This document shows positions 2,658 to 54,857 of a stretch of DNA of 64,000 nt, piece by piece. The translations under genes and the position numbers were made by a program. The stretch is from assembly GCA_032718475.1 (NCBI GenBank), contig JAUCBJ010001616.1, positions 62,001 to 126,000 of the forward strand, written 5' to 3'. Source of the DNA: Nemertoderma westbladi (Eukaryota > Animalia > Xenacoelomorpha). Within the stretch, counting starts at the first letter, position 1. Every line of letters starts with the position of its first letter. The notes under the pieces are model-generated. The model saw only the letters and a list, made by a program, of their open reading frames with translations, searched no databases and was not told the origin of the DNA.

Positions 2658-2979
2658 ATGTCTAAACCATTATCCTATCAAACATATGTGATGAAAACCG
2701 AAGGGAGTAAATATACAGAGAGAAACAAACCACGAAGGATATGCAAAAAATGGAAGAAAATCCTTCCAATATGCGCGACGATTTTAAAAAAACTATTTGT
2801 TGTTTTATGTATTTCGACCTACATCATCTTTGCCGGTTGTATTATTCATATAATTGAGCGGAAATATACGACTCCTGCACTGGAAATTATTAACCGTTCC
2901 ACGGACGAGATAAAACACACTCTAGAGAAGTTCACTGAAGAAAGACACTGTAAATTAATCAATGTCACCTTATTAGAAG
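2658..2979 (+). CDS. K2P potassium channel paralog A, exon 1 (N-terminus, TM1, cap helix)
   Basis: ATG at 2658; TM1 LFVVLCISTYIIFAGCIIHIIE; cap Cys (RHCKL); donor AAG|gtaggt at 2980, phase 1. Homologous to 35913-36216. Confidence 0.85.
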
Positions 2980-3084
2980 GTAGGTTAAACCAACGCAACC
3001 GTTTATAATTTACTCATCTCTCCTATCCTATGATAATACATTCTGTGGTGAAGTTCAACAGAGAGCTCATCCTTTTACATAGGG

Positions 3085-3175: not shown

Positions 3176-4370
3176 GAATATCTCCAATGGGAATATCTGG
3201 GAGTACAGACTCAGACACTTTGACTTCTATAAAGTTATCAGGCAATACCCTGTCATTATTGAGGAGCTTTTCAAAGTGGCCCTTCCAACCATTGAGGCGA
3301 TCGGCTGGTGATTCAGCCTTAACTTTGGTGGTTGGTTGGCTATTCCGCAAGGTAAGCAAGTTGATCGATTTCCATGCCTAGGATGATTGCCTGCTGTCGT
3401 CAGAATCATTGATGGCATCAACCTGTTGGTTTATTAGCTCCTGTAGATTAACAGTGTATTGCCTGTTCAGGGACCTAGATGCAGCCTTAACTGCAATCCT
3501 GGCCGCTGTAGTCTGTTTGAGTCGGGACTCTTTCTACGCCTTATCATATTACGCCTTATTCATTTCGGCACTTCTGAATTTTTTTGTCAGTCCAGGGGGG
3601 GGGGCCCTGTTCCTGTTTCGAGTGTATACATGAACTGTTTCTGTAGTTGCTAACTTAACTGCTTCTGTGAAGGCAGTATAGCCCTCGCAGTGATCTGCCG
3701 TTTCAGAGGCAAGAACCTCATACCTGTTGTTCAGCTGTATCTCAAGCTGGATCTCACACTTGGCTGTTGTAACAGAGAGGACCAGTCATGCCGCGGCAAG
3801 GCAGATTTCGTTGTTCGGCTAGCACGCAGACTAAGTCTTACCTTGGCCACAATAAGGCGGTGATCACTGGAGAAGGGTCGAAGTGTAAATGCATTACAGT
3901 CTTGTATAGTAGTATAGTATAGTATATAGTCTAGTATAGTATATATATGGTCTATCTGGGACTTGTGACCACTGGGTCCACTATGAGTCCATAGCTTTCC
4001 AGTTCGCTTCTTGAACTGGGTTCCAGCCGAAAACAATCCATTTCCAGAGATAAAATCCTGAAGATGGACGGAATTTCGGTTAACACTATTGCTATAGACC
4101 CAGGGCGATGTAGGTGATTGATGCAGACTTGCATTAAAGTCTCCCAGGAATGTTAAGAATGCATGCTGATCCACTCCATCAGTAGCTGCTTGTAGATTGT
4201 AGTATAAATTTTCCACCTCCTCTACAGGGGCAACACTAGTTGGAGAGTAGCACACAATCAGAACCACCTTAGGAAACTTCTTAGCCAGTCTTCCAGAACA
4301 TGAGAAGTGGCAACGGATGATGCGGTTAGAGATTGGGTCTATTTTGTCCAATGCTGCATTTGCAGTATAG
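3176..4370 (-). mobile_element. Internal RTE LINE fragment (APE endonuclease and linker) embedded in the satellite
   Basis: ORF 3731-4351 has CYSPT, LGDFNA, KSQIDH and SDHR endonuclease motifs; KVKAESPADRL matches the family at 20478-22899. Confidence 0.9.
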
Positions 4371-6821: not shown

Positions 6822-9335
6822 GGGCAGCACACCACTAAAATATATAAAAAAAATGAAAATTGAGTTTTTGATTGTTTTTTGGTGATTCACATATGGTCTT
6901 CGCTGTGGTAAAATTTTGAGTCCATATCAATACAGGAAGATTGTAAAAATTGCCTAGCTTTTGTGTATGTCCGATGGATTTTTGAGACTTTGAGTTACTT
7001 TTTAGCGAACAATACATCTGCCAAATACAGTATCTATAGATGCTGTTATTATGAGTTTCAAATCATCATTTTCTTCAATTTATGTAGTGGAGGGAATTTC
7101 AAACTTCTACTTCTGCAGTTATTTTTAGTAAAATTTTCAGTCTGATGTGTGGCATTGTTACTGTCTTGTTTCAATCGCTTGGCTACTTGACATCTTTCTT
7201 TGAAGACTCTGAAGATCTTATACAACATTATATTATATGTATGTGTCTGTCATCAATCAATGTTATATTCTGCTTACAAACAGGGCCTAAAGCCCTGAAA
7301 CACTTTTTGAGGGTTTGAGGTACTCTCCTACAGTCTGACAGTAGGCCTATCTGAAAAACACATACATCTTCATACATTTGTACCTTGTAGCAGAAGTTCT
7401 GATTTTGTAAATTATAGGCCTATATTAGTATAATATGGGTGTAGGAGTAGTTACCCAAAGATACCCATAACTGCCATAAACAAAACAGAAAATATTTACA
7501 AGTAGGCCTATAGGCTTTTAGATAACTATAATATATGACTACTATCTGACTATTTTCTGTGATATAATTTATTGATTGTTTTTTACTACATGGTACCTAC
7601 AGAGCTTGGTCCTTACCTGCTTGAAGTTACCCTGATGTTCAAGCTTTATAGAGAAACGGCGTTTCAGAGGAAACCGTTACAAGCCAGCAGTCGGTATCAG
7701 TAGTAGTGCTCAGTGCAGCAGTTCTGCCACTGAAAGCAATGCAGAAGTTGTCCCTATTGAAACAACTGGTACTATTTAACGACAAGCAGCTTCTAGTAGA
7801 AAGATAGCTACTGTTCCTGGAACTCTGGGATTTCCTGACTACAGTTCATCTAGGGATGGGTTTGAACTTATGGACATAGAATTATTGAATATTGCTCTTT
7901 CTGAAATTGTTTGCTATCAACATTGCCATGGTTCAAATATCATAATTGAAAAACAAATACAGTGTGGACTGGCTTCAAACTTCCAATTGAAATGCCATTC
8001 TTGTTTCAATTACGTACCATTTGACTCATCACCTCCAGCAAAAGTATCCACAAACAAGAAGGGCCAGGCACACTATGAGAACAATCTTCGTTTTGCATAT
8101 GGAATGAGGTCTATTGGAATTGGTGAAGAAGGAGCTAAAACATTTGCTGCAATAATGGGTATACAATCTCCCATTCAGCATTTTGATAGAACCTATGATG
8201 TAATTCTGCCAGCAGTCAAAGCAGTAGCTAAAGAAACTATGAAGGATGCTTGTTTGGAAGCTGTTTCAGAAAATGCCAATGATAATGCCACTGATATTGC
8301 TGTATGTGTTGATGGTAGTTGGCAACGTCGAGGACATAAGTCTCTCAATGGAGTTGTAACAATGACATCAATGGATACTGGTAAGGTCATAGAGATGTGC
8401 AATGTGTCTCTAAATTCTGCCATGGTTGCATCAAGATTCAGTCTCAGCCTCAAAGTGTGAAAGATGCATACAAGGAGATCTGCATCAAAAACTATGAAGG
8501 TACAAGCGGTGGAATGGAGGTTGTAGGTGCCAAGATGATGTTCAATCGCTCTGTTGATATTTATGGTGTTAGATATACAAAATATCTTGGTGATGGAGAT
8601 AGTAGTTCGTTTTCTACGGTAGCCAATAGTCAACCATATGGAAGTGATTGCCCAATATCCAAATTAGAATGCATAGGGCATGTACATAAAAGGATGGGAT
8701 GTAGACTGCGGCATCTAAAGACCTCTCTCAAGGGTAAGAAATTATCTGATAGTAAAACAATAGGAGGTAGAAACCGGCATACAGACAATACCATAAACTC
8801 TCTCCAACTGTACTATGGGATGGCAATTAGACAAAATACCCATGATCTTCAAGCAATGCATCGTGCAGTCCAAGCTATCCGTTTCCATAAGATGTCCACA
8901 AATGAGAATCCCCAACATGGATTATGTCCCAAAGAGGATAACACCTGGTGTGGATACAACAAATCCCTCATTACTGGAGAAGGTTATAATCATAAACATT
9001 CACTTCCAATAGCAATTATGGATGAGATTCGACCAATTTTCAGAGATCTATCAAACTTGAATCTTTAGAGTAAGTGCTTACATGGGCAAACTCAAAATTG
9101 TAATGAGAGTGTCAATAACTCAATCTGGGTTCTTTGCCCCAAGCGGGTATTTGTTGGATATAAAACTCTTGAGCTTGGGACATATGATGCTATATCATGC
9201 TTTAACTCTGGAAATATATCAAGATTCAAAGTTCTAGAGAAACTCGGAATAGATGCAGGACAATATTCTGTGAATGGATTGCAACAACTTGATGATCTCC
9301 ATATCAAGCGTGCCAATCGAGATTGTCGAGAAAGT
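6822..9335 (+). mobile_element. DNA transposon with frameshifted DDE transposase (Mutator-like domain; TTAA|GG end suggests Kolobok type)
   Basis: ORFs 7870-8460 and 8397-9068 carry VDGSWQRRGHKSLNG, YLGDGDSS and KLECIGHVHKRMG motifs, followed by C-LHGQTQNCNES. TTAA at 6818-6821 precedes GGGCAGCAC. The 3' end is truncated. Confidence 0.8.
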
Positions 9336-32218: not shown

Positions 32219-32895
32219 GTTATGGAGAGAATGTACCTGGTTCTGTGTTGGGGCGACAATTTACTATAGTCGTTGCTATATTTGGAATCCCTTTGACGAT
32301 TTATACATTAAACTCGTTCTCTGATATCCACAGATACATGGGGCGAGTCATAAACCTTGTTGTCAACCGAGTAATACCTTCAAGCGTATCACCACGAATA
32401 ATTGCTTCTACATCCGCTCTAGCACATATTGTCTTAAAATTTCTTACTATATTTGTGTTACCGGCGTTTCTATTCACGCGTATGGGTTATGGTTGGACAT
32501 ATGAAATTGCTTATTATACCACATTCATAACCTTCAGTACAATAGGTTTTGGAGACTATATACCACTCGAAGGTGGACTCCAACTCGAGGAGCATCTAGC
32601 ATCGGATTGGCGGCACTATGCAGTGTTATTTTTATTAATGGTTCTGATTCTGGCTGCATTATCCTATTTTTCTTCTCTGGTCAATGCAGTGGCGAGTGGT
32701 AGATGGCGACAGCAAATGGGGCTGCAGTTCCCAAATCATGAGCCAGAGGAAAGCAATGAGGCCAATACTGAGGATGAGCCATGTGAAAGTGTTAGTGGAT
32801 CGATGAATCGTAATATTCAGATTGCTGCAATGGAATTTACTGCTCACCAACAACAGAGTACTCAATCAGTATACATAAACAGTGTACACAATTAG
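32219..32895 (+). CDS. K2P paralog A, exon 3 (GYG, TM2, TM3, P2 STIGFGD, TM4); full protein 373 aa
   Basis: Acceptor ttttatag at 32218; G|GT TAT GGA completes TTIGYG; FGIPL; YYTTFITFSTIGFGDYIP. 322+123+677 nt = 374 codons, in frame. Confidence 0.92.
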
Positions 32896-35912: not shown

Positions 35913-36216
35913 ATGGTGGACAACTTGAAATTGATAAAGATGGAACGACAACACACTGAAGCTGAAAGTAAATACGTTATTGGCAGTACAAGCAGGATCA
36001 GGTCCATATGTGAAGTATTGCTAAAAAAGGCATTAATTGTATTATGTGTTGCTGCCTATATTACTCTTTGTGGCTGTGTTATGCATTTAGTTGAACAAAA
36101 ATATACAAAACCTGCATTGGAAGTTATACGAAATTCTAAGCTTGATGTAGCAAATATTGTCGAACGACTTGCTGTCGCTAAAAAGTGCGAATTAAAAAAC
36201 TATTCTAAGATACATG
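35913..36216 (+). CDS. K2P paralog B, exon 1
   Basis: TM1 ALIVLCVAAYITLCGCVMHLVE, cap Cys (KKCEL), donor G|gtgagt at 36217, phase 1. The start could alternatively be the Met of MERQH. Confidence 0.88.
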
Positions 36217-37289
36217 GTGAGTAAACTTATAGAAAAATAATAAGCAAATTAAATTAAACAAACTTGACCATAAGATATCAATACTGTCACTACTAATCAC
36301 CGGACATATGGACAAGTAACAGGGATGCGTTTGTAGTAGATACAGCATGTACATTGTACAATGTACAACTGCTATAGATCGTTCTAAAGCCCCGGGCATC
36401 ATTAGGTTAGGTACTTCATTGACTATAATAGGAAGGTTCACAGCGTTTTTAGTGAAAATAATTTAACGATATCATATATCATACGATATCAGTTACTGAT
36501 ATACAACTACACAAAATACTGATATCAATACATCCAGCAGTGAAATCTCGCCTACTACTTGTAGAATCAGCAACCTTTCTAATACAATCAGCTGTTGATA
36601 TTGATTGGCGTCACTGATTGGTCAACCATGTTATAACAAACAGCAACAGCCATGTGGTAGTTTTAATCGAGAAAAAGTGAGTAATTCGGTCGACAGCATC
36701 AACAGCTATTATCGATGTAATATAAGATCTTAACGGGTCGCGGAATGATTCCAGAATAGTGCATCTATTAAATTAAATCACTGTTTCGATAATGTTACTG
36801 GGTCAGGGTCACCATTATTTCATTATCTTCATTGTCAAAATAAAAGAATACGGATGTGTGTTGTGGTTTAGTGTGTCACATATTATCTCAAACTTCAATT
36901 CTTACTTTTCAACGAACCCTTTGACAATAGTTTAGTAAAGTAACAGAGATGATAAATAATAATTGTCACCAGTAAGCATTACAGATCTATATGGTCTTAT
37001 GGTCAGGTCAGGTATTCAGGTAATGCAGCATGCCGATCCTAGTAGTAGTACAGATCTTTTCACTGATTCTAAAAGAACTTTGGTACCCAAGTGTTTTGTT
37101 ATACATCAGATAGGTCCTTCCTATATATGGTATACAGACTGTTGTATATATTGGTGTAAACCCTACGCCGACCGATAATCAAAACCGACAAACATTATTG
37201 ACGCTAATTAATGTTAATAATCAATTGAGGGAAAGGTACATCTTACAGTGGATTGTTATTCTAACCAAAACAATAAACAATATCTCATT

Positions 37290-38014: not shown

Positions 38015-38625
38015 GATATGGTGACGTGATACCTGGTTCTGTGTTGGGCAGACAATTGACAATTGTTATCGCTTTGTTTGGTATTCCACTGATGATTTAT
38101 ACACTGAATGCATTCCGAGGAATCCACACATTCATTGGTTATTGTCTAGACGAAGTTATGTTTCATTTAAAGCCAAAATGGCTAACAGTACAAATGAGCA
38201 CTGCGATCTCGGCAGTCGTCCATATAGTAACTTCCTATTTGCTTATATTTATATTGCCAGCGTTGTTATTCAAACGCATGGGATATAATTGGACTTACGA
38301 AATCGCTTACTATACAACATTTATAACGTACAGTACTATAGGTTTGGGTGATTACATCCCAGGGGATGAGGAAATACAGGAAACACCCGAGCAAAAAGCA
38401 GGATGGCATTCATTGGGAATTCTCTGGTCACTTATGGTGATGATGGTGGCGGCATTGTCATACTTTTCGTCATTAGTCAACGCGTTAGCTGGTGGTACCT
38501 TGAGGCAGCATCTGGGGCTGCATAAATGTAAGAAAGACCAGAGCCAAACCACCAGCTATTTCAATAACATAAGTGTTGGTCAGGATTCTGTCGACGACGC
38601 TTATCTCTTGTCGACGATATCGTGA
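38015..38625 (+). CDS. K2P paralog B, exon 3 (GYGD, P2 STIGLGD); full protein 345 aa
   Basis: cttcag acceptor; GYGDVIPGSVLGRQ..FGIPL..YYTTFITYSTIGLGDYIP. 304+123+611 nt = 346 codons. Confidence 0.93.
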
Positions 38626-41880: not shown

Positions 41881-43729
41881 TGTAAATATTATTAATATCC
41901 TATTGAATCACAGCTTATTGTGAAATTAATTAAATTATTCTGGAACATCACCAATTTGCTACTTACTTTTCCCTACTGTTCCTTTTGTTTGGCTTGTGTT
42001 ATGTAAATTTAGGTAGAATTTCCATGAATAAACATACATAAGCAAAATAAAATTTTGTAGACTTTTTTTTGTCATTAATAAGGTAATATAGAATCCAAAA
42101 TATGTGGTTCGGATTGATTGCGAAATACTTATGGGTTTTTTGCTAGATTGACTCGACTATAAGCCTTTACATTACAATTGAGCTTACCCTGAGTTGATGA
42201 CAGTATTGTAACGATGACAATTAGGCCCTATAGATACATACGATATATAAATAATGTACTGCTTGACATTACACTAACTGGCTGAATAGAGATAGAACTA
42301 TAATAATATAATAATAATAGTAGTAATGGTTTACCCTATTTCTGCGACAGTTTAGTCCAACTTCACACCTTGGGTGTTAAGTAGGTCATTAATTAATTAA
42401 CCAATTAATTAATTGGTCGATTAAACAATTAATTAATTGTTTAATCAATCGATTTGTATCAAATAATGTTGCCAAAGGCAATTTAATTTGACACAAATCA
42501 ATCAGATAGGGACGCGCGATGAATAAATTGTACTACAGCAAACGAAATATCGAGGCCCAAAACATAAATTACCCTCACACGAAAATAAAGTGGCCCCAGT
42601 TTGGCCCCGAGTCATCCCTCAATAATCTATGGCTGGTTGGGATCTTATTAGCCGTAGCATAACTAACCCAAACATCAATGCGTGAATGGGGCCTGCTACA
42701 GAGTTTAAATTATTCAAACCCACAGCTTCGTTATTATATCAATTCATCCAAGAAATTAGAATAAACATCTGGTATGGCAATAGTTTGCATTCTTTCATAT
42801 TGTGCAGTTTACGCATGCATTAGCTCAACAACAAAGCCCTACCCAAACGCCATGTGTCAAATTAATTCCCAACCATATCTATACCACAGTGGATACTGCA
42901 GTTTTATTGTTTGAAAATATGCCTAACCCCTCACGCGCCGTTGGACTCTTATTAGCCGTAGCATGACTAACCCAAACATCAATGCGTGAATGGGGCCTGC
43001 GTGAATGGGGCCTGCCACAGAGTTTAAATTATTCAAACCTTCAGCTTCGTTATTACATCAATTCGCCTAAGAAAATTATAATAAACATCTGCTCTTGCAA
43101 TAGATTGCATTCTTTCGCATTGTACTTTATGAAGCAGTCCACTCGCGTCTGACCGCACATAATTAAATAAGGCCCTCTTTTAATACATAAGTTATATACA
43201 GTTTATCTTAAATTTATTGAATTTGTTTTTATTTACAACCCTAATTGTTCTACCGTATTATAATTTATGTTTTATTATAACAAGCTATACCCTGTTAATC
43301 TTTATTAATTTTATTTGTACTGAAGTTTTCGAGGGCGCTGTTTCCAATGGTCCTACTCTCAAAGCGATCTAACCTACTGTATAATTAATTACTTAAGTCT
43401 GCGAGGTATGCGTAAGTAACAAATCTCGTTTACCAGTTTTCCTTAAAAACTATGAATCTATATTGCTTAAGAGTTCTGAGGGGTGAGCCATGAGGCAAGG
43501 TGTTTGATACTTTTTAGATATATTATTACTTAATTTTGACCCCCCAGACGGTATCTATTACAATATAGGCTATATCTTTTTGCGGAGTCACAGAGTAGTC
43601 TGAAGATCCGAGTCTGCTGCTAGAGGGTGAAATGTCTCAAAGTGAAAATCATACAGTAACTATGAATTGGTTGCTAGGCAATAATACTACATTTTGTATA
43701 GTTAGGCCTATTGCTGATCGAACGAAAAC

Positions 43730-43805
43730 TGCCCTGGTCCATGTGAGGATCGAACCCACGACCTACTGGAGATGTGAATTCAAAGCAACCACTACACCAA
43801 GGTGG
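43730..43805 (-). ncRNA. tRNA(Val-CAC)-like Pol III head, left arm
   Basis: Minus strand: A box TGGTGTAGTGG, loop TTCACAT, B box GGTTCGATCC in a T-arm GTGGG/CTCAC, then TTTT. The acceptor stem is poor, so this is not a functional tRNA. Confidence 0.65.
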
Positions 43806-43876
43806 AACAGTAACGTTCGAATTTGTTCGTTAACGTTCGAATTTGTAAGACTCTGATTTAAGACCTGAGGCACTCC

Positions 43877-44460
43877 CCACAACCACAGCCACAGCCACAA
43901 CCACAGCCACAACCACAGCCACAGCCACAGCCACAGCCACAACCACAGCCACAGCCACAGCCACAACCACAGCCACAGCCACAGCCACAGCCACAGCCAC
44001 AGCCACAACCACAGCCACAACCACAGCCACAGCCACAACCACACCCACAGCCACAACCACAGCCACAGCCACAGCCACAACCACAGCCACAGCCACAACC
44101 ACAGCCACAACCACAGCCACAGCCACAACCACACCCACAACCACAGCCACAGCCACAGCCACAACCACAGCCACAGCCACAGCCACAACCACAGCCACAG
44201 CCACAGCCACAGCCACAGCCACAACCACAGCCACAGCCACAACCACAGCCACAGCCACAACCACAACCACAGCCACAGCCACAGCCACAACCACAGCCAC
44301 AGCCACAGCCACAACCACAGCCACAGCCACAGCCACAACCACAGCCACAGCCACAGCCACAACCACAACCACAGCCACACCCACAGCCACAGCCACAGCC
44401 ACAACCACAGCCACAGCCACAGCCACAACCACAGCCACAACCACAGCCACAACCACAGCC
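43877..44460. repeat. (CCACAG/CCACAA)n hexamer array, left arm
   Basis: Direct inspection; reverse complement of 46065-46875. Confidence 0.98.
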
Positions 44461-44564
44461 TCACCTTCACCCACTTTATTGTTAAATACGCCTGAGAAAA
44501 ATTCAAGAAACATCTGGTTTACAATAGATTATTCTTTTTTCACAACTCCATTCTAGCCTCCCTC

Positions 44565-44599
44565 TATAAAAGCCCCCATTCACCGCATTCTCATTCATT
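44565..44599 (+). promoter_or_regulatory. TATA box and TCATT initiator of the central cassette
   Basis: TATAAAA at 44565; TCATT at 44591 and 44595 (A 28-32 nt downstream); ATG at 44712. Confidence 0.6.
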
Positions 44600-44711
44600 C
44601 TCTAATTTTTATTTTTAAAAGTTTTATTTATTTTCATAAAAGTTTTATTTATTTAAAATTTTGTAAAATCATTCAGCGAAAATTCATAATATCAATTGAC
44701 ATTGCTATATA

Positions 44712-45470
44712 ATGCCTAGCTATGAAAGATGTTTGGTTTGTAATAAAGAAATGAGACGAGACAGTATATCCCGTCATATGAGTATACATAGAAAGGAAGG
44801 TGTAATGGAACCATTACCAAAGAAATTAAAAAATAATGATGATATTTTTAGTGAAGAAGAAAACAAAAAGAGAGTTGAGAGTGATTTTCTAGAGATTAAA
44901 CAAATGATGAAACATAAATTCGAGAAAATCATGAATATTTTGAAGAATATACAGAAACAGCCACATAGTGAAAAGGACGATGAGAGTGAGGAAGAGAATA
45001 AATCAGAGGAAAGTGAGAATGATGAAACGGAGAGTGAGATAGAGAAAGAAGAAAATGAGAGTGGTGGTGAAGAAAATGAGAGCGAGAAAGAAGTCGAGGA
45101 ACATGAAAGTGGTGAGGATAATGACTCAGATAATGAGGAGATATTAAGACATGTATTAGGAAATAAAAATAAATTGCAGAAAATAATTAGACAATTGAAT
45201 GAAATGCAGAAACATTCGCATAAGGAGAGTGATAATGATGGAAATGAGAGTGATGAGGATGAATCGGAGGAGAGTAGCGATGACAGTGAGGAAGAATCAA
45301 AGGAGGGTAGCGATGACAGTGAGGAAGCATCAGAGGAGAATGACAATGAAAATGGACAGAAAATCAGAGTAGGGAATGGAAAAGTTATATCTCCGGCAAC
45401 TGTTGTATATCGACCTAGGATTATGAACAGTAACAGTCGTACAGTTAGTGCGAGACAGTGCAGAAGATAA
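44712..45470 (+). CDS. Intronless C2H2-like zinc finger plus acidic low-complexity protein (element cargo)
   Basis: CLVC-x12-HMSIH (C-x2-C-x12-H-x3-H), basic PKKLK, coiled-coil and D/E/S-rich tracts; upstream TATA/Inr; AATAAA at ~45836. Confidence 0.7.
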   Translation: MPSYERCLVCNKEMRRDSISRHMSIHRKEGVMEPLPKKLKNNDDIFSEEENKKRVESDFLEIKQMMKHKFEKIMNILKNIQKQPHSEKDDESEEENKSEESENDETESEIEKEENESGGEENESEKEVEEHESGEDNDSDNEEILRHVLGNKNKLQKIIRQLNEMQKHSHKESDNDGNESDEDESEESSDDSEEESKEGSDDSEEASEENDNENGQKIRVGNGKVISPATVVYRPRIMNSNSRTVSARQCRR

Positions 45471-45742
45471 TTAGACAATTGAATGAAATGCAGAAACATT
45501 CGCATAAGGAGAGTGATAATGATGGAAATGAGAGTGATGGGGATGAATCGGAGGAGAGTAGCGATGACAGTGAGGAAGAATCAGAGGAGAGTAGCGATGA
45601 CAGTGAGGAAGCATCAGAGGAGAATGACAATGAAAATGGACAGAAAATCAGAGTAGGGAATGGAAAAGTTATATCTCCAGCAACTGTTGTATATCGACCT
45701 AGGATTATGAACAGTAACAGTCGTACAGTTAATGCGAGACAT
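45175..45742 (+). repeat. 284-bp tandem duplication of the 3' end of the ZnF-acidic ORF
   Basis: TGCAGAA(A/G)ATAATTAGAC at 45175 and 45459; the two copies are near-identical. Confidence 0.95.
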
Positions 45743-46064
45743 TAATTATAACCGAAATATTGTATATGTTTGAAATATTTATTATATTTAGTCGTATTAA
45801 TTATGTAATTTCATAATAATATGCTTAATTAAACAAATAAAGTCAACTTGATCCTGAGTTCTGAGTCGTTTTGTGTGGTGGTGGGTAATTGTATTTGTAA
45901 TTTTAATTTGTGTAATGGTCTAATATATATTATATATTATAAACCACTATAAATGATCAGTCCTGTCTGATCCTATTTTAAATGCATAATGAATGAGTAA
46001 CCAAAACATCAAATTAGTTAAACATTTTGACAACAGATAAACAAATATTCTCCTGTGGGGAGAA

Positions 46065-46875
46065 GTGGTGGCTGTGGTTGTGGCTGTGGTTGTGGCTGTG
46101 GTTGTGGCTGTGGCTGTGGTTGTGGCTGTGGCTGTGGTTGTGGCTGTGGCTGTGGTTGTGGCTGTGGCTGTGGTTGTGGCTGTGGCTGTGGCTGTGGCTG
46201 TGGTTGTGGCTGTGGCTGTGGTTGTGGCTGTGGCTGTGGCTGTGGCTGTGGCTGTGGCTATGGCTGTGGCTGTGGCTGTAGCTGTGGCTGTGGTTGTGGC
46301 TGTGGCTGTGGTTGTGGCTGTGGCTGTGGCTGTGGTTGTGGCTGTGGTTGTGGCTGTGGCTGTGGTTGTGGCTGTGGCTGTGGTTGTGGCTGTGGCTGTG
46401 GCTGTGGTTGTGGCTGTGGCTGTGGTTGTGGCTGTGGCTGTGGCTGTGGCTGTGGCTGTGGTTGTGGCTGTGGCTGTGGCTGTGGTTGTGGCTGTGGCTG
46501 TGGCTGTGGCTGTGGCTGTGGTTGTGGCTGTGGCTGTGGTTGTGGCTGTGGCTGTGGCTGTGGCTGTGGCTGTGGTTGTGGCTGTGGCTGTGGCTGTGGT
46601 TGTGGCTGTGGCTGTGGCTGTGGCTGTGGCTGTGGCTGTGGTAATGGCTGTGGCTGTGGCTGTAGCTGTGGCTGTGGTTGTGGCTGTGGCTGTAGCTGTG
46701 GCTGTGGTTGTGGCTGTGGCTGTGGTTGTGGCTGTGGTTGTGGCTGTGGTTGTGGCTGTGGCTGTGGCTGTGGTTGTGGCTGTGGCTGTGGCTGTGGCTG
46801 TGGTTGTGGCTGTGGCTGTGGTTGTGGTTGTGGCTGTGGTTGTGGCTGTGGCTGTGGCTGTGGCTGTGGTTGTGG
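46065..46875. repeat. (GTGGCT/GTGGTT)n hexamer array, right arm
   Basis: Direct inspection. Confidence 0.98.
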
Positions 46876-46944
46876 GGAGTGCATCAGGTCTTAAATCAGA
46901 GTCTTACAAATTCGAACGTTAACGAACAAATTCAAACGTTACTG

Positions 46945-47016
46945 TTTCACCTTGGTGTAGTGGTTGCTTTGAATTCACATCTCCCGCATGTCATGGGTTC
47001 AACCCTCACATGGACT
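46945..47016 (+). ncRNA. tRNA-like Pol III head, right arm
   Basis: A box TGGTGTAGTGG and B box GGTTCAACCC; mirror copy of 43730-43805. Confidence 0.6.
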
Positions 47017-47474
47017 TGACACATGGCGTTTGGGCGATGGCTTTGTTGTTTAGCTAATATGCGCGTGGACTGCTTCGCAATACAATGCGAAAGAATGCAA
47101 TCTATTGCAAGAGCAGATGTTTATTATAATTTTCTTAGGCGAATTGATGTAATAACGAAGCTATAGGTTTGAATAATTTAAACTCTATCGCAGGTCCCAT
47201 TCACGCGTTGACATACAGTATAGGATTCGATGTTTGGATTAGTCATGCTATGGTTAATAAGAGCCCAACGACCGCAGATTATTGAGGGATGACTCAGGGC
47301 CAAACTGGCCCACTTTATTTTCGAGTGAGGGTAATTTATGTTTTGGGCCCCGATTGTGTCTTTATATTTCATTCTAGAGTATAACTCAACGTGGGATTCC
47401 GTGGGATGCTTAATCCTTCACGCATGCCATACCAAAAACTATGGTTCTGTTTGAAATGTTAAGGTGGACCTTTC

Positions 47475-47507
47475 TATATAAATAAAACCATGTAAAGTTA
47501 GATCATT
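47475..47507 (+). promoter_or_regulatory. TATA box and TCATT initiator of the GTSF1-like cassette
   Basis: TATATAAA at 47475; TCATT at 47503 (A 28-30 nt downstream); ATG at 47612. Confidence 0.6.
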
Positions 47508-47611
47508 ATCTCTAAAAAATATTAAGCGAGGTTTTTCAAAGTTTTTTTTTTTTTTTTTTTAAAAAGTAAATCTAAATAAATTTTGTCTTTTGTCTTTTGT
47601 CTTTTGTTACT

Positions 47612-47923
47612 ATGGAATATTTTATATGTCCATATGATGCCACACATCGAATTCATTCAGAAAAATATGTCAACCATTTAAGAAAATGTCGTAAGAACTT
47701 TCCCAGCGAAAAAATGGTTCAGTGTCCTTTCGAAGTCGCACACAGCTTCAGAGAAGCTGAAAAGGACCACCATCTGCTGTATTGCGAATATAGGAACAGG
47801 AACTCAATTTTTCAGAAAATAAAAGAGGAGAAAAAAGAAGAGAAAAAAGAAGAGAAAAAAGAAAAAAAGGTAGAGAAGAAAGGAGAATGTTCGATGGCGT
47901 GGGGAGAAGAGGTGTGGGATTGA
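47612..47923 (+). CDS. GTSF1: GTSF1/Asterix-like protein: two U11-48K-type CHHC zinc fingers, KE linker and EEVWD tail (103 aa, intronless)
   Basis: CPYDATH-x9-HLRKC and CPFEVAH-x9-HLLYC both fit C-x5-H-x9-H-x3-C. CPYD..H.I....HL.KCRKN.P closely matches the GTSF1 first finger as recalled. Acidic Trp C-terminus WGEEVWD. Confidence 0.88.
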   Translation: MEYFICPYDATHRIHSEKYVNHLRKCRKNFPSEKMVQCPFEVAHSFREAEKDHHLLYCEYRNRNSIFQKIKEEKKEEKKEEKKEKKVEKKGECSMAWGEEVWD

Positions 47924-48863
47924 AGTTGGTATGCGCGAGAAAAACTACAGTAACTAGTATAGAGAAGATTGGGGTTAATTTGAGACATGGTGTTTGGGTA
48001 TTGCCTTTGTTGATGAGCTAATACAACGACCGCAGATTATTGATGGATGACTCAGGGCCAAACTGGTCCACTTTATTTTCGAGTGAGGGTAATTTATGTT
48101 TTGGGCCCCGTTCTCATCTTTATATTCATTCTACCTTTACCTACTGTACGGCAAAAATAATACAAATGTATTGTATATTATATTGTATGGTTCCTATTGT
48201 GTTGTATATTTCGTTTGTTATAGTACAATTTATTCATCTCGCGTCCCTATCTGATTGATTTGTGTCAAATTAAATTGCCTTTGGCAACATTATTTGATAC
48301 AAATCGATTGATTAAACAATTAATTAATTGTTTAATCGACCAATTAATTAATTGTTTAATTAATTAATGAACTACTTAACACCCAAGGTGCGAAGTAGGT
48401 CCAACTGTCGCCAAGAGTGGCAAACCATTACTACTGGTACATGTTTAATTTTTATGGTAGATAGTGTTTTCAATGGTAGTTAGTGTATTCATAAAAATGG
48501 TACAGTAGTTATTTAATAGTATTATATTATTAGTACTATTATAGTATTTAAAAATACCAACATATCGTATTATTATTATGAATATCCATATTAAATTTGG
48601 TTTATCTTCATTTATTTATCAGTGAAAAGAGTCTAGTATTGAAGAAAATAAAATAACGTGATTTCTGCAGCAATTTATTAAATAGATAATGAAAAAAATC
48701 TACAGTAGTTGCACAGATTCGGTCGTCCTTACGACTCATTTCCAGTATAGAACCCACAGAACTATACTTCTTACAGGCAAAGAGATAACTGGTGCCGGGA
48801 CTCATTTAAGGACCATTTAATTAACAAAGCAAATATGCGCCCTGGTTTGGTTAGTCCCTTTAA

Positions 48864-50418
48864 CCCTATTAGTACCGGGCTATAAAATGTTGTACAAATA
48901 CCGGGAGGGGGTCATATTGACCCCCCCCTCTAAAATCTACAAATATTTACGAAAACGTCTGATTTCTTGTTTGTACGTAGGTATCACTTGTCTGGATCCG
49001 ACCGAAAAAAAAAATTTCGAAAAAAATGTACTGGGGTGGTTATATTGCAGCACCAAAATTACAAGTAGTGCACAATTTTCACCAAATTTGAAAGTTACAT
49101 TTTCGGCTAATTATTTTTCAATACAGGTTTTCTGGGGTGCAAAATACATTGGAAAATATTAAAAAATGATATGATTACTATAAATGGCTGTTTAGTCCTC
49201 TCTGCGTAGGAAAAAAATGAAAAAAACAAGTAACCAGCACTTTTCAGTTAGAACACAAAATTTTTAATTCACTTATACGATGCTATAAATTCACATTTTC
49301 AGGTTTTCGAGGGCGCTGATTCTAATGGAATACATTTCTAATATGCCAGATCATTGCTACTTGTATTTTTCGGCGTTTTTTGGCAAATTTTGGTGCTAGC
49401 ACCAAATTTCGTACCCATCACCAAAAAGTACAAGTTTGCGATGTCCAGTGCTGTTTTTATTGATTCCATCGGATTCAGGACCCTCATAAACCCGTATAAC
49501 GCAAGAAACAAGGTGATACTATCTACTTATCAATTTGCATATTTTCCAAAATTTGGTGCTGGCACAACAATTTTCACCTACCGGCGAAAAATACCATTTT
49601 GAGAACACTTATGAAATTTTTACTGATTCCATTGAATTCAGAACCATCACAAACCCATATAACGCAAGAAACAAGGTGACACAATCAATTGATATATTTG
49701 ATGGTTTTCAAAATTTGGTGCTAGCACCACATTTTGCACCCACATCCGAAAAATACAAGTTTGAGATGTCTAGTTCGATAATTATATTTTCCATTGAATT
49801 CAGAACAGCCATAAACCTCTAAAACCCAAGAAATAAGTTGTCACAAGCAATTTTATCTATTGAATGGATTTTCAAAATTTCGTGCTTGCACCAAAATTTG
49901 CACACAGCACCGAAAAATACAAGTTTGATACGCTTGGTGCAACTCGTATATATTTCATCGAATCTAGAAACCCAAAAAACCCCAATTGCGTAAAAAACAA
50001 GTTTCAAACGATCAATTTACAAAATTGACTTATTTCAAAATTTGGTGCTGGCACCAAAATTTGGCACCCACCGAAAAAAACAAGTTTGAAATTTCTAAAT
50101 CAATTTATATGAATTCCATCAAATTTCTAACACCAAAAAACCGGTGTAAATAATAAATAGAGATGTTACAATTCATATTTAATGAAATGTAATTTTCAAA
50201 AAACGTCTCAAAAAAAGTGCCAAAAGTAGGGTTAAAAAATGGTGCTATAACTCGAAAAGTACCCAATATTTTTGAAAACGGTTTTCACTACTAGGAAGAC
50301 AATAGATTTTTAGGAAAGGTCATAAAATTTCAGATTCCTAACTGCGTTTGTTTCAGATTTATAATAAAAAAACCACGGGAGGGGTCATATTGACCCCCCC
50401 CCCCCGGGTTTAATAGGG
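48864..50418. mobile_element. Non-autonomous piggyBac (MITE) with TTAA TSD
   Basis: TTAA|CCCTATTA...TAATAGGG|TTAA; subterminal palindrome GGGGTCATATTGACCCC near both ends; internal degenerate repeats. Confidence 0.9.
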
Positions 50419-54539: not shown

Positions 54540-54857
54540 TCAGATACTCGAAGATACTCCACGCTTATTAACTTCTCTTGATGATGATGAAGTTTGTCTG
54601 TTGTTTATATCAGTTCCGAATACTGATGGAGCCTCCAGCGGTCTTTCATACCTTTTTATCTTGATCATCTCAGCGTTTTCTGGCCAATGTCGCGCACATA
54701 CTCCAATATTTGGCGTTACTTTCTCTATTCTATTTGGTATATTCTCCAACCAATAATGTTGGTCTATTAAGTTTTTTGGGAACTGGTAAACTGTTACCTT
54801 CTCTTCTTGCGAGGCATAATTTCCTTCACAGCCTGCCACAGAGCATTTGCGTGGCAT
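54540..54857 (-). CDS. THAP zinc-finger domain of the P transposase (105-aa ORF)
   Basis: MPRKCSVAGC..FPK..W..VCARHW..APSVF is the C2CH THAP signature. Confidence 0.85.
   Translation of the reverse strand: MPRKCSVAGCEGNYASQEEKVTVYQFPKNLIDQHYWLENIPNRIEKVTPNIGVCARHWPENAEMIKIKRYERPLEAPSVFGTDINNRQTSSSSREVNKRGVSSSI

Follow-up and report, generated by a model that had tools for sequence, protein, structure and literature searches.

How animal transposons counter piRNA silencing is a long-standing question, and in the cases that we found it is captured RNA fragments that act, and no proteins. The locus described here raises it at the level of a gene: does a mobile element carry an intact component of the pathway that silences transposons, and what might the product do? 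We analysed 64,000 nucleotides of a Nemertoderma westbladi contig (JAUCBJ010001616.1), called the window below and numbered from its first letter. An earlier note, made from these letters, had proposed a mobile element carrying a minimal GTSF1/Asterix-like gene, which might serve as a decoy or a self-regulator.

Identity of the ORF

The note had described an intact, intronless ORF of 103 aa with two CHHC fingers and the C-terminus WGEEVWD*, and had taken it to be GTSF1/Asterix-like. Translation bears out the ORF, which lies on the plus strand at 47612-47923 without an internal stop, and the Pfam profile zf-U11-48K matches it in two stretches with 37.1 bits (cut-off 21.1). The gene has the following features.

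47612..47923 (+), GTSF1/Gtsf1L-like ORF, intact and intronless, 103 aa (translation, profile and structure matches)
47627..47689 (+), CHHC finger 1 (C6, H12, H22, C26), with H15, K18, K25 and K28 at mouse R26, R29, K36 and K39
47723..47785 (+), CHHC finger 2 (C38, H44, H54, C58)
47900..47920 (+), terminal W97-x4-W102-D103, predicted PIWI- or Tudor-binding (aligned to mouse W107 and W112; function by analogy)

Both fingers follow the pattern C-x5-H-x9-H-x3-C (residues 6-26 and 38-58), with all eight ligands kept. When solved structures were searched with phmmer, the top match was mouse GTSF1 (6x46, E 1.2e-12, alignment reaching query residue 102) and the second family match was again GTSF1 (9nhb_E, E 8.6e-10), while U11-48K reached just 0.05. 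An AlphaFold model of the ORF had a mean pLDDT of 82, and 90-96 across residues 1-60; with this model Foldseek placed 6x46 at rank 1 and the GTSF1 chain of the SIWI-piRNA-target-GTSF1-Maelstrom complex at rank 2. HMMER against 1.84 billion representatives gave 527 matches at E <= 0.001, the best of them about 47% identical over both fingers. A word-index protein search gave no match, which we attribute to its limited sensitivity because the full HMMER search was so productive. The names of nine HMMER matches were checked: six clusters were called gametocyte-specific factor 1, three were uncharacterised and none was TRM13 or U11-48K. Clusters with zf-U11-48K only accounted for 29 of 30 matches in the ESM Atlas. 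The ORF is closer to GTSF1 than to U11-48K or TRM13 and has no methyltransferase domain. By every sequence feature examined it is a member of the GTSF family; the TRM13/U11-48K identity was ruled out by phmmer, Foldseek and the names of the matches looked up. No relatives were found among 601 candidates in viral contigs or 593 in metagenome contigs, and Foldseek of the model against viral structures returned nothing at E <= 0.001.

The carrier element

The claim that the ORF sits in the right arm of an element, between direct repeats, was confirmed, the repeats being slightly longer than first described. The element spans 42319-48435 (6.1 kb) and is bounded by an inverted repeat (42319-42550 against 48435-48206) that is 93.1% identical over 233 nt and whose tips are exactly AGTAGT (42319) and ACTACT (48435).

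42319..42550 (+), left terminal inverted repeat (TIR), AGTAGT start (Maverick-type); 93.1% over 233 nt to 48435-48206
42549..43146 (unstranded), left arm subterminal segment, inverted homology to 47016-47354, internal duplication of ~320 bp, without the GTSF cassette; 80-92% to the right arm
43737..44474 (unstranded), left inner arm: tRNA-like segment, A/B-box-like (minus strand), and (CCACAG)n microsatellite; 92% inverted to 47015-46272
44565..44595 (+), TATA + TCATT promoter-like site of the central ORF
44712..45470 (+), central 252-aa ORF: weak N-terminal C2H2-like motif, acidic low-complexity region
46068..47015 (unstranded), right inner arm: (GTGGCT)n microsatellite and tRNA-like segment (A-box-like 46953, B-box-like 46996, plus strand)
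47016..47265 (unstranded), right arm subterminal segment upstream of the cassette; 80-87% to the left arm
47266..47376 (+), direct repeat copy 1, part of the element arm; 92.8% over 111 nt to 48024-48133
47475..47507 (+), TATATAAA + TCATT (Inr-like), predicted promoter of the GTSF gene
47941..48025 (unstranded), second, shortened arm-segment copy behind the ORF; 78% to 42905-42816, 82% to 47016-47059
48024..48133 (+), direct repeat copy 2; 92.8% over 111 nt to 47266-47376
48206..48435 (-), right TIR, ACTACT end, no TSD; depth step at 48435

Homology between the arms reaches inward to 44474 on the left and to about 46070 on the right. The GTSF cassette is found in the right arm only, where two copies of the same arm segments flank it, one full and one shortened.

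The TIR tips carry the Maverick-type motif 5'-(AGT)2//(ACT)2-3', which is the commonest end motif among vertebrate Mavericks (PMC8097293). Mavericks also take up host cargo genes near the TIR, such as the nematode wasp proteases and krma kinases (10.1101/2022.07.12.499685). The element thus shares with Mavericks/Polintons (general background in PMC6431247) its ends, TIRs of at least 233 bp and a host-derived cargo adjoining the TIR. Unlike them it is only 6.1 kb long, has no ORF of at least 100 aa for pPolB, integrase, ATPase, protease or capsid anywhere in 42319-48435, and has no 6-bp TSD in this copy (AATAAT on the left, GGTACA on the right). Because both a Maverick core gene and a TSD are missing, we file it only as a likely non-autonomous Maverick/Polinton derivative. 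It also differs from known Maverick carriers in that its cargo is part of the very pathway with which the host silences transposons. A longer pattern of the element ends had 0 matches in metagenome contigs. The 14-nt end motif had at least 120 matches in viral contigs, and these are ascribed to chance, since the 80 loci compared had no blastn or tblastn similarity beyond the motif.

The central ORF has its 3' end altered by a 283-bp tandem duplication (45175-45457 and 45459-45741). Pfam C2H2 matched it only at E 0.37, the word-index protein search found no homologues, and its ESM Atlas matches, all under 0.9, included C2H2 proteins of large DNA viruses.

Outward-facing tRNA-like segments with A-box- and B-box-like motifs were noted in both arms (46953-47005, plus strand; 43799-43747, minus strand). 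They were not called by ARAGORN or Rfam. Contig depth over them is the element maximum (1e5-3e5), and from this depth a SINE head or a Pol III unit is the probable identity of the segment. About 600 bp downstream lies the GTSF gene, a member of a family that binds tRNA; this may be chance. AT-rich palindromic 24-bp repeats in the TIRs (42392-42454 and 48302-48379) are hairpin-forming and are possible replication or protein-binding sites; Rfam matches to them were far under gathering scores.

Promoter-like site and ORF ends

The gene had been credited with its own TATA + TCATT promoter and with none of the poly(A) or TSD marks of a simple retrocopy; the promoter-like motifs and the lack of such marks were both confirmed. 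TATATAAA lies at 47475 and TCATT at 47503, with 30 nt from the start of the TATA to the Inr A. This pattern occurs four times in the window against 1.55 expected, and two of the four sites precede the element's two ORFs; it is weak evidence alone, because 8 of 100 shuffles also gave four. Spacing at the central ORF site is like that at the GTSF gene. TATA-TCATT sites are also present at 3228 and 35721, by a potassium channel-like gene cluster.

There is no poly(A) tract 3' of the GTSF stop, and neither AATAAA nor ATTAAA occurs from the stop to 48200. A simple L1-type retrocopy was rejected, as the poly(A) tail is lacking and the flanking 111-bp repeats are element-arm sequence and no TSD.

Other copies in public contigs

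Further copies were sought in contigs under the same species label, from data sets X1 and X3 (one sample), X2 (a second study), X5 (a third study) and X6; one of these may be the source of the window itself. Just outside 48435 the summed depth drops 8- to 25-fold, so this position is a real repeat end. The ORF is covered by 36 contigs in X1, 29 in X2 and 27 in X3. The 24 contigs listed over it are 1 to 26 letters off the window in 66-162 nt, with per-contig differences among those listed (X1/X3, X2) of 1, 2, 5, 7, 9, 10, 12, 13, 15, 16, 22, 25 and 26 letters over 77-162 nt. Versions up to ~16% divergent are present in contigs of two studies, and divergent versions are deep themselves (334 in X1; 320-431 in X3). 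At four listed loose ends (47596-47602) diverged versions continue into a window-like 5' UTR. Fourteen listed loose ends inside the ORF were judged by eye: 12 were in frame, one was unrelated and one, from X3, had an in-frame stop at codon 41. Other damage comprised H44->Q in one version and a 5-nt insertion at 47728 in one X3 contig. A single-copy gene with chance flanks was ruled out, several diverged versions being present; with the depth step at 48435, this upholds the earlier note in treating the gene as part of a repeated element and not as a lone host gene.

Most arms appear to lack the cassette. Depth at the element end is 23 to 29 times that over the ORF, and at 47647 it exceeds that of the shallowest contigs listed by a factor of 22 to 51; summed depth being no copy number, these values mean only tens of cassette copies, in a minority of elements. 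An empty-arm joint, 47376->48141, was found in X1, X2 and X3, with sides of just 18-28 nt. X5 has the arms and similar empty joints, at depths too low for its lack of ORF cover to count; X6 contributed no contigs. The earlier note had foreseen an objection if other copies lacked the gene and it evolved neutrally without transcription. The first part appears to hold for most arms, by depth and empty joints, whereas neutral evolution is contradicted by the site counts given below.

One X1 contig joins repeat copy 1 to the cassette (47331-47421), and the joints 47919->47131 (X3) and 48022->47063 (X1) tie the 3' side of the cassette to fuller arms in other copies. No contig spans from the ORF to the element end, so that for most versions a place in full elements is unproven, which counts against the element-borne reading.

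Selection on the protein

The measurement of selection covers codons 1 to about 73, the KE-rich stretch 47829-47945 having been skipped as a repeat, and uses site counts across versions rather than a tree-based dN/dS. The covered part of the ORF has 40 listed differences, and 15 more are unlisted. Of the 40, silent changes make up 24 and replacing ones 16, and no stop occurs. Randomisation of the same changes gave an expectation of 10.5 silent changes and 1.5 stops, and the maximum of silent changes in 20000 randomisations was 23, so that none reached the 24 observed. A crude pN/pS over the 40 listed changes was 0.24. Variation is seen at 12 of 16 four-fold sites but at only 12 of 140 zero-fold ones (Fisher p 1e-8), and this indicates that the protein has been under purifying selection. 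With all 15 unlisted rows counted as replacing, p was 0.004. None of the listed replacing changes falls at the finger-1 ligands or at K18, K25 or K28.

The protein therefore does not evolve neutrally. A recently captured gene, decaying without function, would suit the predominance of arms without it and the few broken copies. Against this stand the contrast between four-fold and zero-fold sites and the absence of stops where 1.5 were expected; as regards differences between versions, such a reading is already largely refuted, and we consider it very improbable. The observation as a whole is real and more than chance, with stronger backing than the earlier note could give, and its anatomical and selective part, a GTSF gene in an element arm, present in several versions and constrained at the protein level, is in our judgement highly probable.

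The site counts could fit selection inside the element or in host paralogues before capture alike. The gene might thus belong to a small family of host GTSF retro-paralogues under host selection, one or several of which were taken up by the arms and multiplied with them as passengers, the silent excess then predating capture. Several GTSF paralogues are common in animals (four in flies, three in mice, two in silkworm; PMC9539491, PMC9808576). Moreover, four-fold sites mostly vary while an X2 contig over the promoter (47402-47518, 117 nt, depth 597) is identical to the window, and the ORF versions look older than the promoter. This account is improbable, since the diverged versions run into the window-like 5' UTR at the four listed loose ends, one version whose 3' surroundings differ is nonetheless joined to an arm right at the ORF end (47919->47131), and the divergent versions are deep. 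The same contrast between identical promoter and variable silent sites suggests that old ORF versions have a common promoter that became homogenised. Depth over the promoter region (47402-47518) also exceeds that over the ORF, most in X3. Further divergent ORFs, or other genes, may lie behind the same promoter.

Predicted residues for RNA and PIWI binding

In mouse GTSF1, R26, R29, K36 and K39 are needed for RNA binding and PIWI activation, and W98, W107 and W112 for PIWI binding (10.1101/2021.05.04.442675). Residue counts were made on 140 tandem-CHHC homologues, 10 of 150 matches without the tandem pattern being left out. The element protein has H15, K18, K25 and K28 at the four basic positions, three of them basic. 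Homologues are basic there in 47, 135, 133 and 116 cases of 140, so H15 is unremarkable. In the phmmer alignment W97 and W102 fall on mouse W107 and W112, and W98 is without a counterpart. To judge from these alignments, both the predicted basic RNA-binding ridge of finger 1 and the putative PIWI-binding aromatic residues after the fingers are present. The distance from finger 2 to the acidic-Trp motif is 39 and 44 residues, with a homologue median of 40, and three of the 140 homologues likewise end within six residues of the motif. The one unusual feature is the KE-repeat linker: its net charge of +4 stands at the top of the range of the 95 homologues with a scorable motif, whose median is -4.

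The short layout is not in itself a sign of a decoy. Bombyx Gtsf1L, whose tail is 39 residues long and has W99, D100 and D101 among the final ten, binds Vreteno and BmAgo3 via W99 (PMC10711660), and activates BmAgo3 (PMC9808576). Since this protein shares the short layout and yet activates its PIWI, the argument from shortness fails; it was dropped, also because both activation surfaces are kept, and with it the suggestion of the earlier note that the gene had been reduced to a minimal decoy. A decoy role would accordingly rest on evolutionary logic and not on a missing part.

These features could equally belong to a working activator, a complete Gtsf1L-type cofactor borne by the element, which would boost PIWI slicing or silencing, the extra dose helping the host or limiting the element or competing transposons. 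The layout is like that of active Gtsf1L, K18, K25 and K28 stand at the positions of mouse R29, K36 and K39, and replacing changes avoid both these positions and the ligands of finger 1, the more conserved finger in host GTSF1 (PMC9539491). Three points speak against it: a selfish element would gain little from aiding what silences it, each one of tens of redundant copies would come under weak selection only, and the linker charge is atypical. Judged by sequence an activator would fit at least as well as an inhibitor and appears nearly as likely; on its own merits we rate it as possible, on the unlikely side.

A possible inhibitor of host GTSF1

The reading that we tentatively prefer, at somewhat less than an even chance, is that the GTSF gene is cargo in a likely Maverick derivative and that its product docks on PIWI and competes with host GTSF1, weakening silencing. 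It would begin with one ancestral capture between duplicated arm segments, probably through mRNA, as the ORF is intronless; a cassette between full and shortened arm copies is what capture into a tandem duplication might leave. Recombination between the 111-bp repeats could then remove the cassette from some copies. The gene would be transcribed in germ cells from the TATA-Inr site, and its product would bind RNA through finger 1 and PIWI (or a Tudor protein) through the W-x4-W-D end. Host GTSF1 and Maelstrom assemble a silencing complex on target-engaged PIWI (PMC13269885; review PMC9539491). Docking of the element protein at this stage would yield an unproductive complex in which host GTSF1 is outcompeted, to the benefit of the element. 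This competition is the weak link of the scheme.

Inhibition is favoured by the selfish nature of the carrier and by precedent: Drosophila telomeric TEs repeatedly acquired pieces of piRNA-pathway genes (nxf2, piwi, aub) as counter-defence (PMC13534243). For a suppressor that acts in trans, polymorphism among TE copies is expected (PMC13534243), which matches the empty joint 47376->48141 of X1, X2 and X3. GTSF paralogues can also fail on a non-cognate PIWI (10.1101/2021.05.04.442675; PMC9808576), and the linker charge of +4 lies well off the homologue median. Inhibition is opposed by the intact basic ridge and Trp motif, by a layout equal to that of active silkworm Gtsf1L, and by replacing changes that spare K18, K25, K28 and the finger-1 ligands, as expected of a working activator. 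The scheme as a whole is further weakened by the lack of a TSD, of a Maverick core gene in the window and of any autonomous partner, by a silent excess that could predate repeated captures, in host paralogues, by the damage in some copies (H44->Q, the 5-nt insertion, the stop at codon 41), and by the absence of a canonical poly(A) signal after the ORF.

In a bolder form, which we rate slightly lower, a virus-like Maverick family would encode an anti-piRNA protein derived from the cofactor itself, a GTSF1 mimic that enters and blocks the PIWI-GTSF1-Maelstrom complex and, with a promoter common to its versions, diversifies as element and host engage in an arms race.

Counter-defence might also act on RNA, as with Drosophila TART, the captured sequence feeding piRNAs against host GTSF1 mRNA and the protein being secondary. 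The nxf2, piwi and aub fragments are a precedent (PMC13534243), and the long inverted arms could give double-stranded or cluster transcripts. That the ORF is whole, has a promoter-like site of its own and shows a silent excess points instead to selection on the protein, and versions are up to ~16% apart, while targeting is reported to be lost at ~79-82% identity to the host gene (PMC13534243). An RNA-level role is thus quite improbable.

Relation to known systems

The closest known relatives of the element protein are GTSF1/Asterix proteins of the short Gtsf1L type (structures 6x46 and 9nhb/9nhc). It shares with them the tandem N-terminal CHHC fingers, the basic finger-1 ridge, the acidic-Trp spacing, a length of ~100 residues and the W-D end. 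It differs from known members in lying inside a repeated element, in several diverged versions and without introns, and in its KE-rich, net-basic linker, the lack of a counterpart of mouse W98 and a best identity of ~47%.

Proteins by which TEs or viruses suppress silencing include plant VANC and the viral dsRNA-binding and RNase III suppressors. The GTSF gene resembles these in that its product, encoded by an element, is proposed to dampen the host's silencing in trans, inhibition being a prediction here. To our knowledge, no VANC-like or viral anti-silencing protein is a homologue of a PIWI cofactor. The Drosophila telomeric TEs are alike in being mobile elements with piRNA-pathway gene sequence for which counter-defence is proposed (PMC13534243); those cases are gene fragments in retrotransposons acting via piRNAs, whereas the present one has an entire ORF, in a DNA element, whose protein shows selection.

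No report of a TE- or virus-borne GTSF1 was found among the matches listed in a search of full-text literature, a corpus without most subscription journals, supplements and Repbase; a TE-borne GTSF that passed without remark could exist in Repbase or in supplementary repeat libraries. PMC11125864 names both GTSF1 and Polinton, but apart.

With a GTSF gene that is intact, under selection and carried by a mobile element, counter-defence at the protein level becomes open to direct test in existing PIWI slicing assays. If the product is an activator, a transposon would be carrying and amplifying part of the transposon-silencing system, a matter of interest for self-limitation and domestication. 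In both cases, the natural variants of GTSF would show which surfaces decide PIWI activation.

Other features of the window

Pieces of a tandem cluster resembling two-pore-type potassium channels lie at 2658-3008, 32338-32895, 35913-36224 and 38092-38625, two of them with Pfam Ion_trans_2. A Mutator-like transposase is split over two ORFs at 7870-9068 (Pfam PF20700). The segment 53435-55495 has 78-bp inverted ends (94%), a THAP-domain ORF (54543-54857, minus strand) and a further ORF, and is probably a broken P-like DNA transposon. To the right of the element lies a 163-bp tandem repeat array (49380-50201), a 26-nt piece of which is also present in the left-arm insert (43325-43350).
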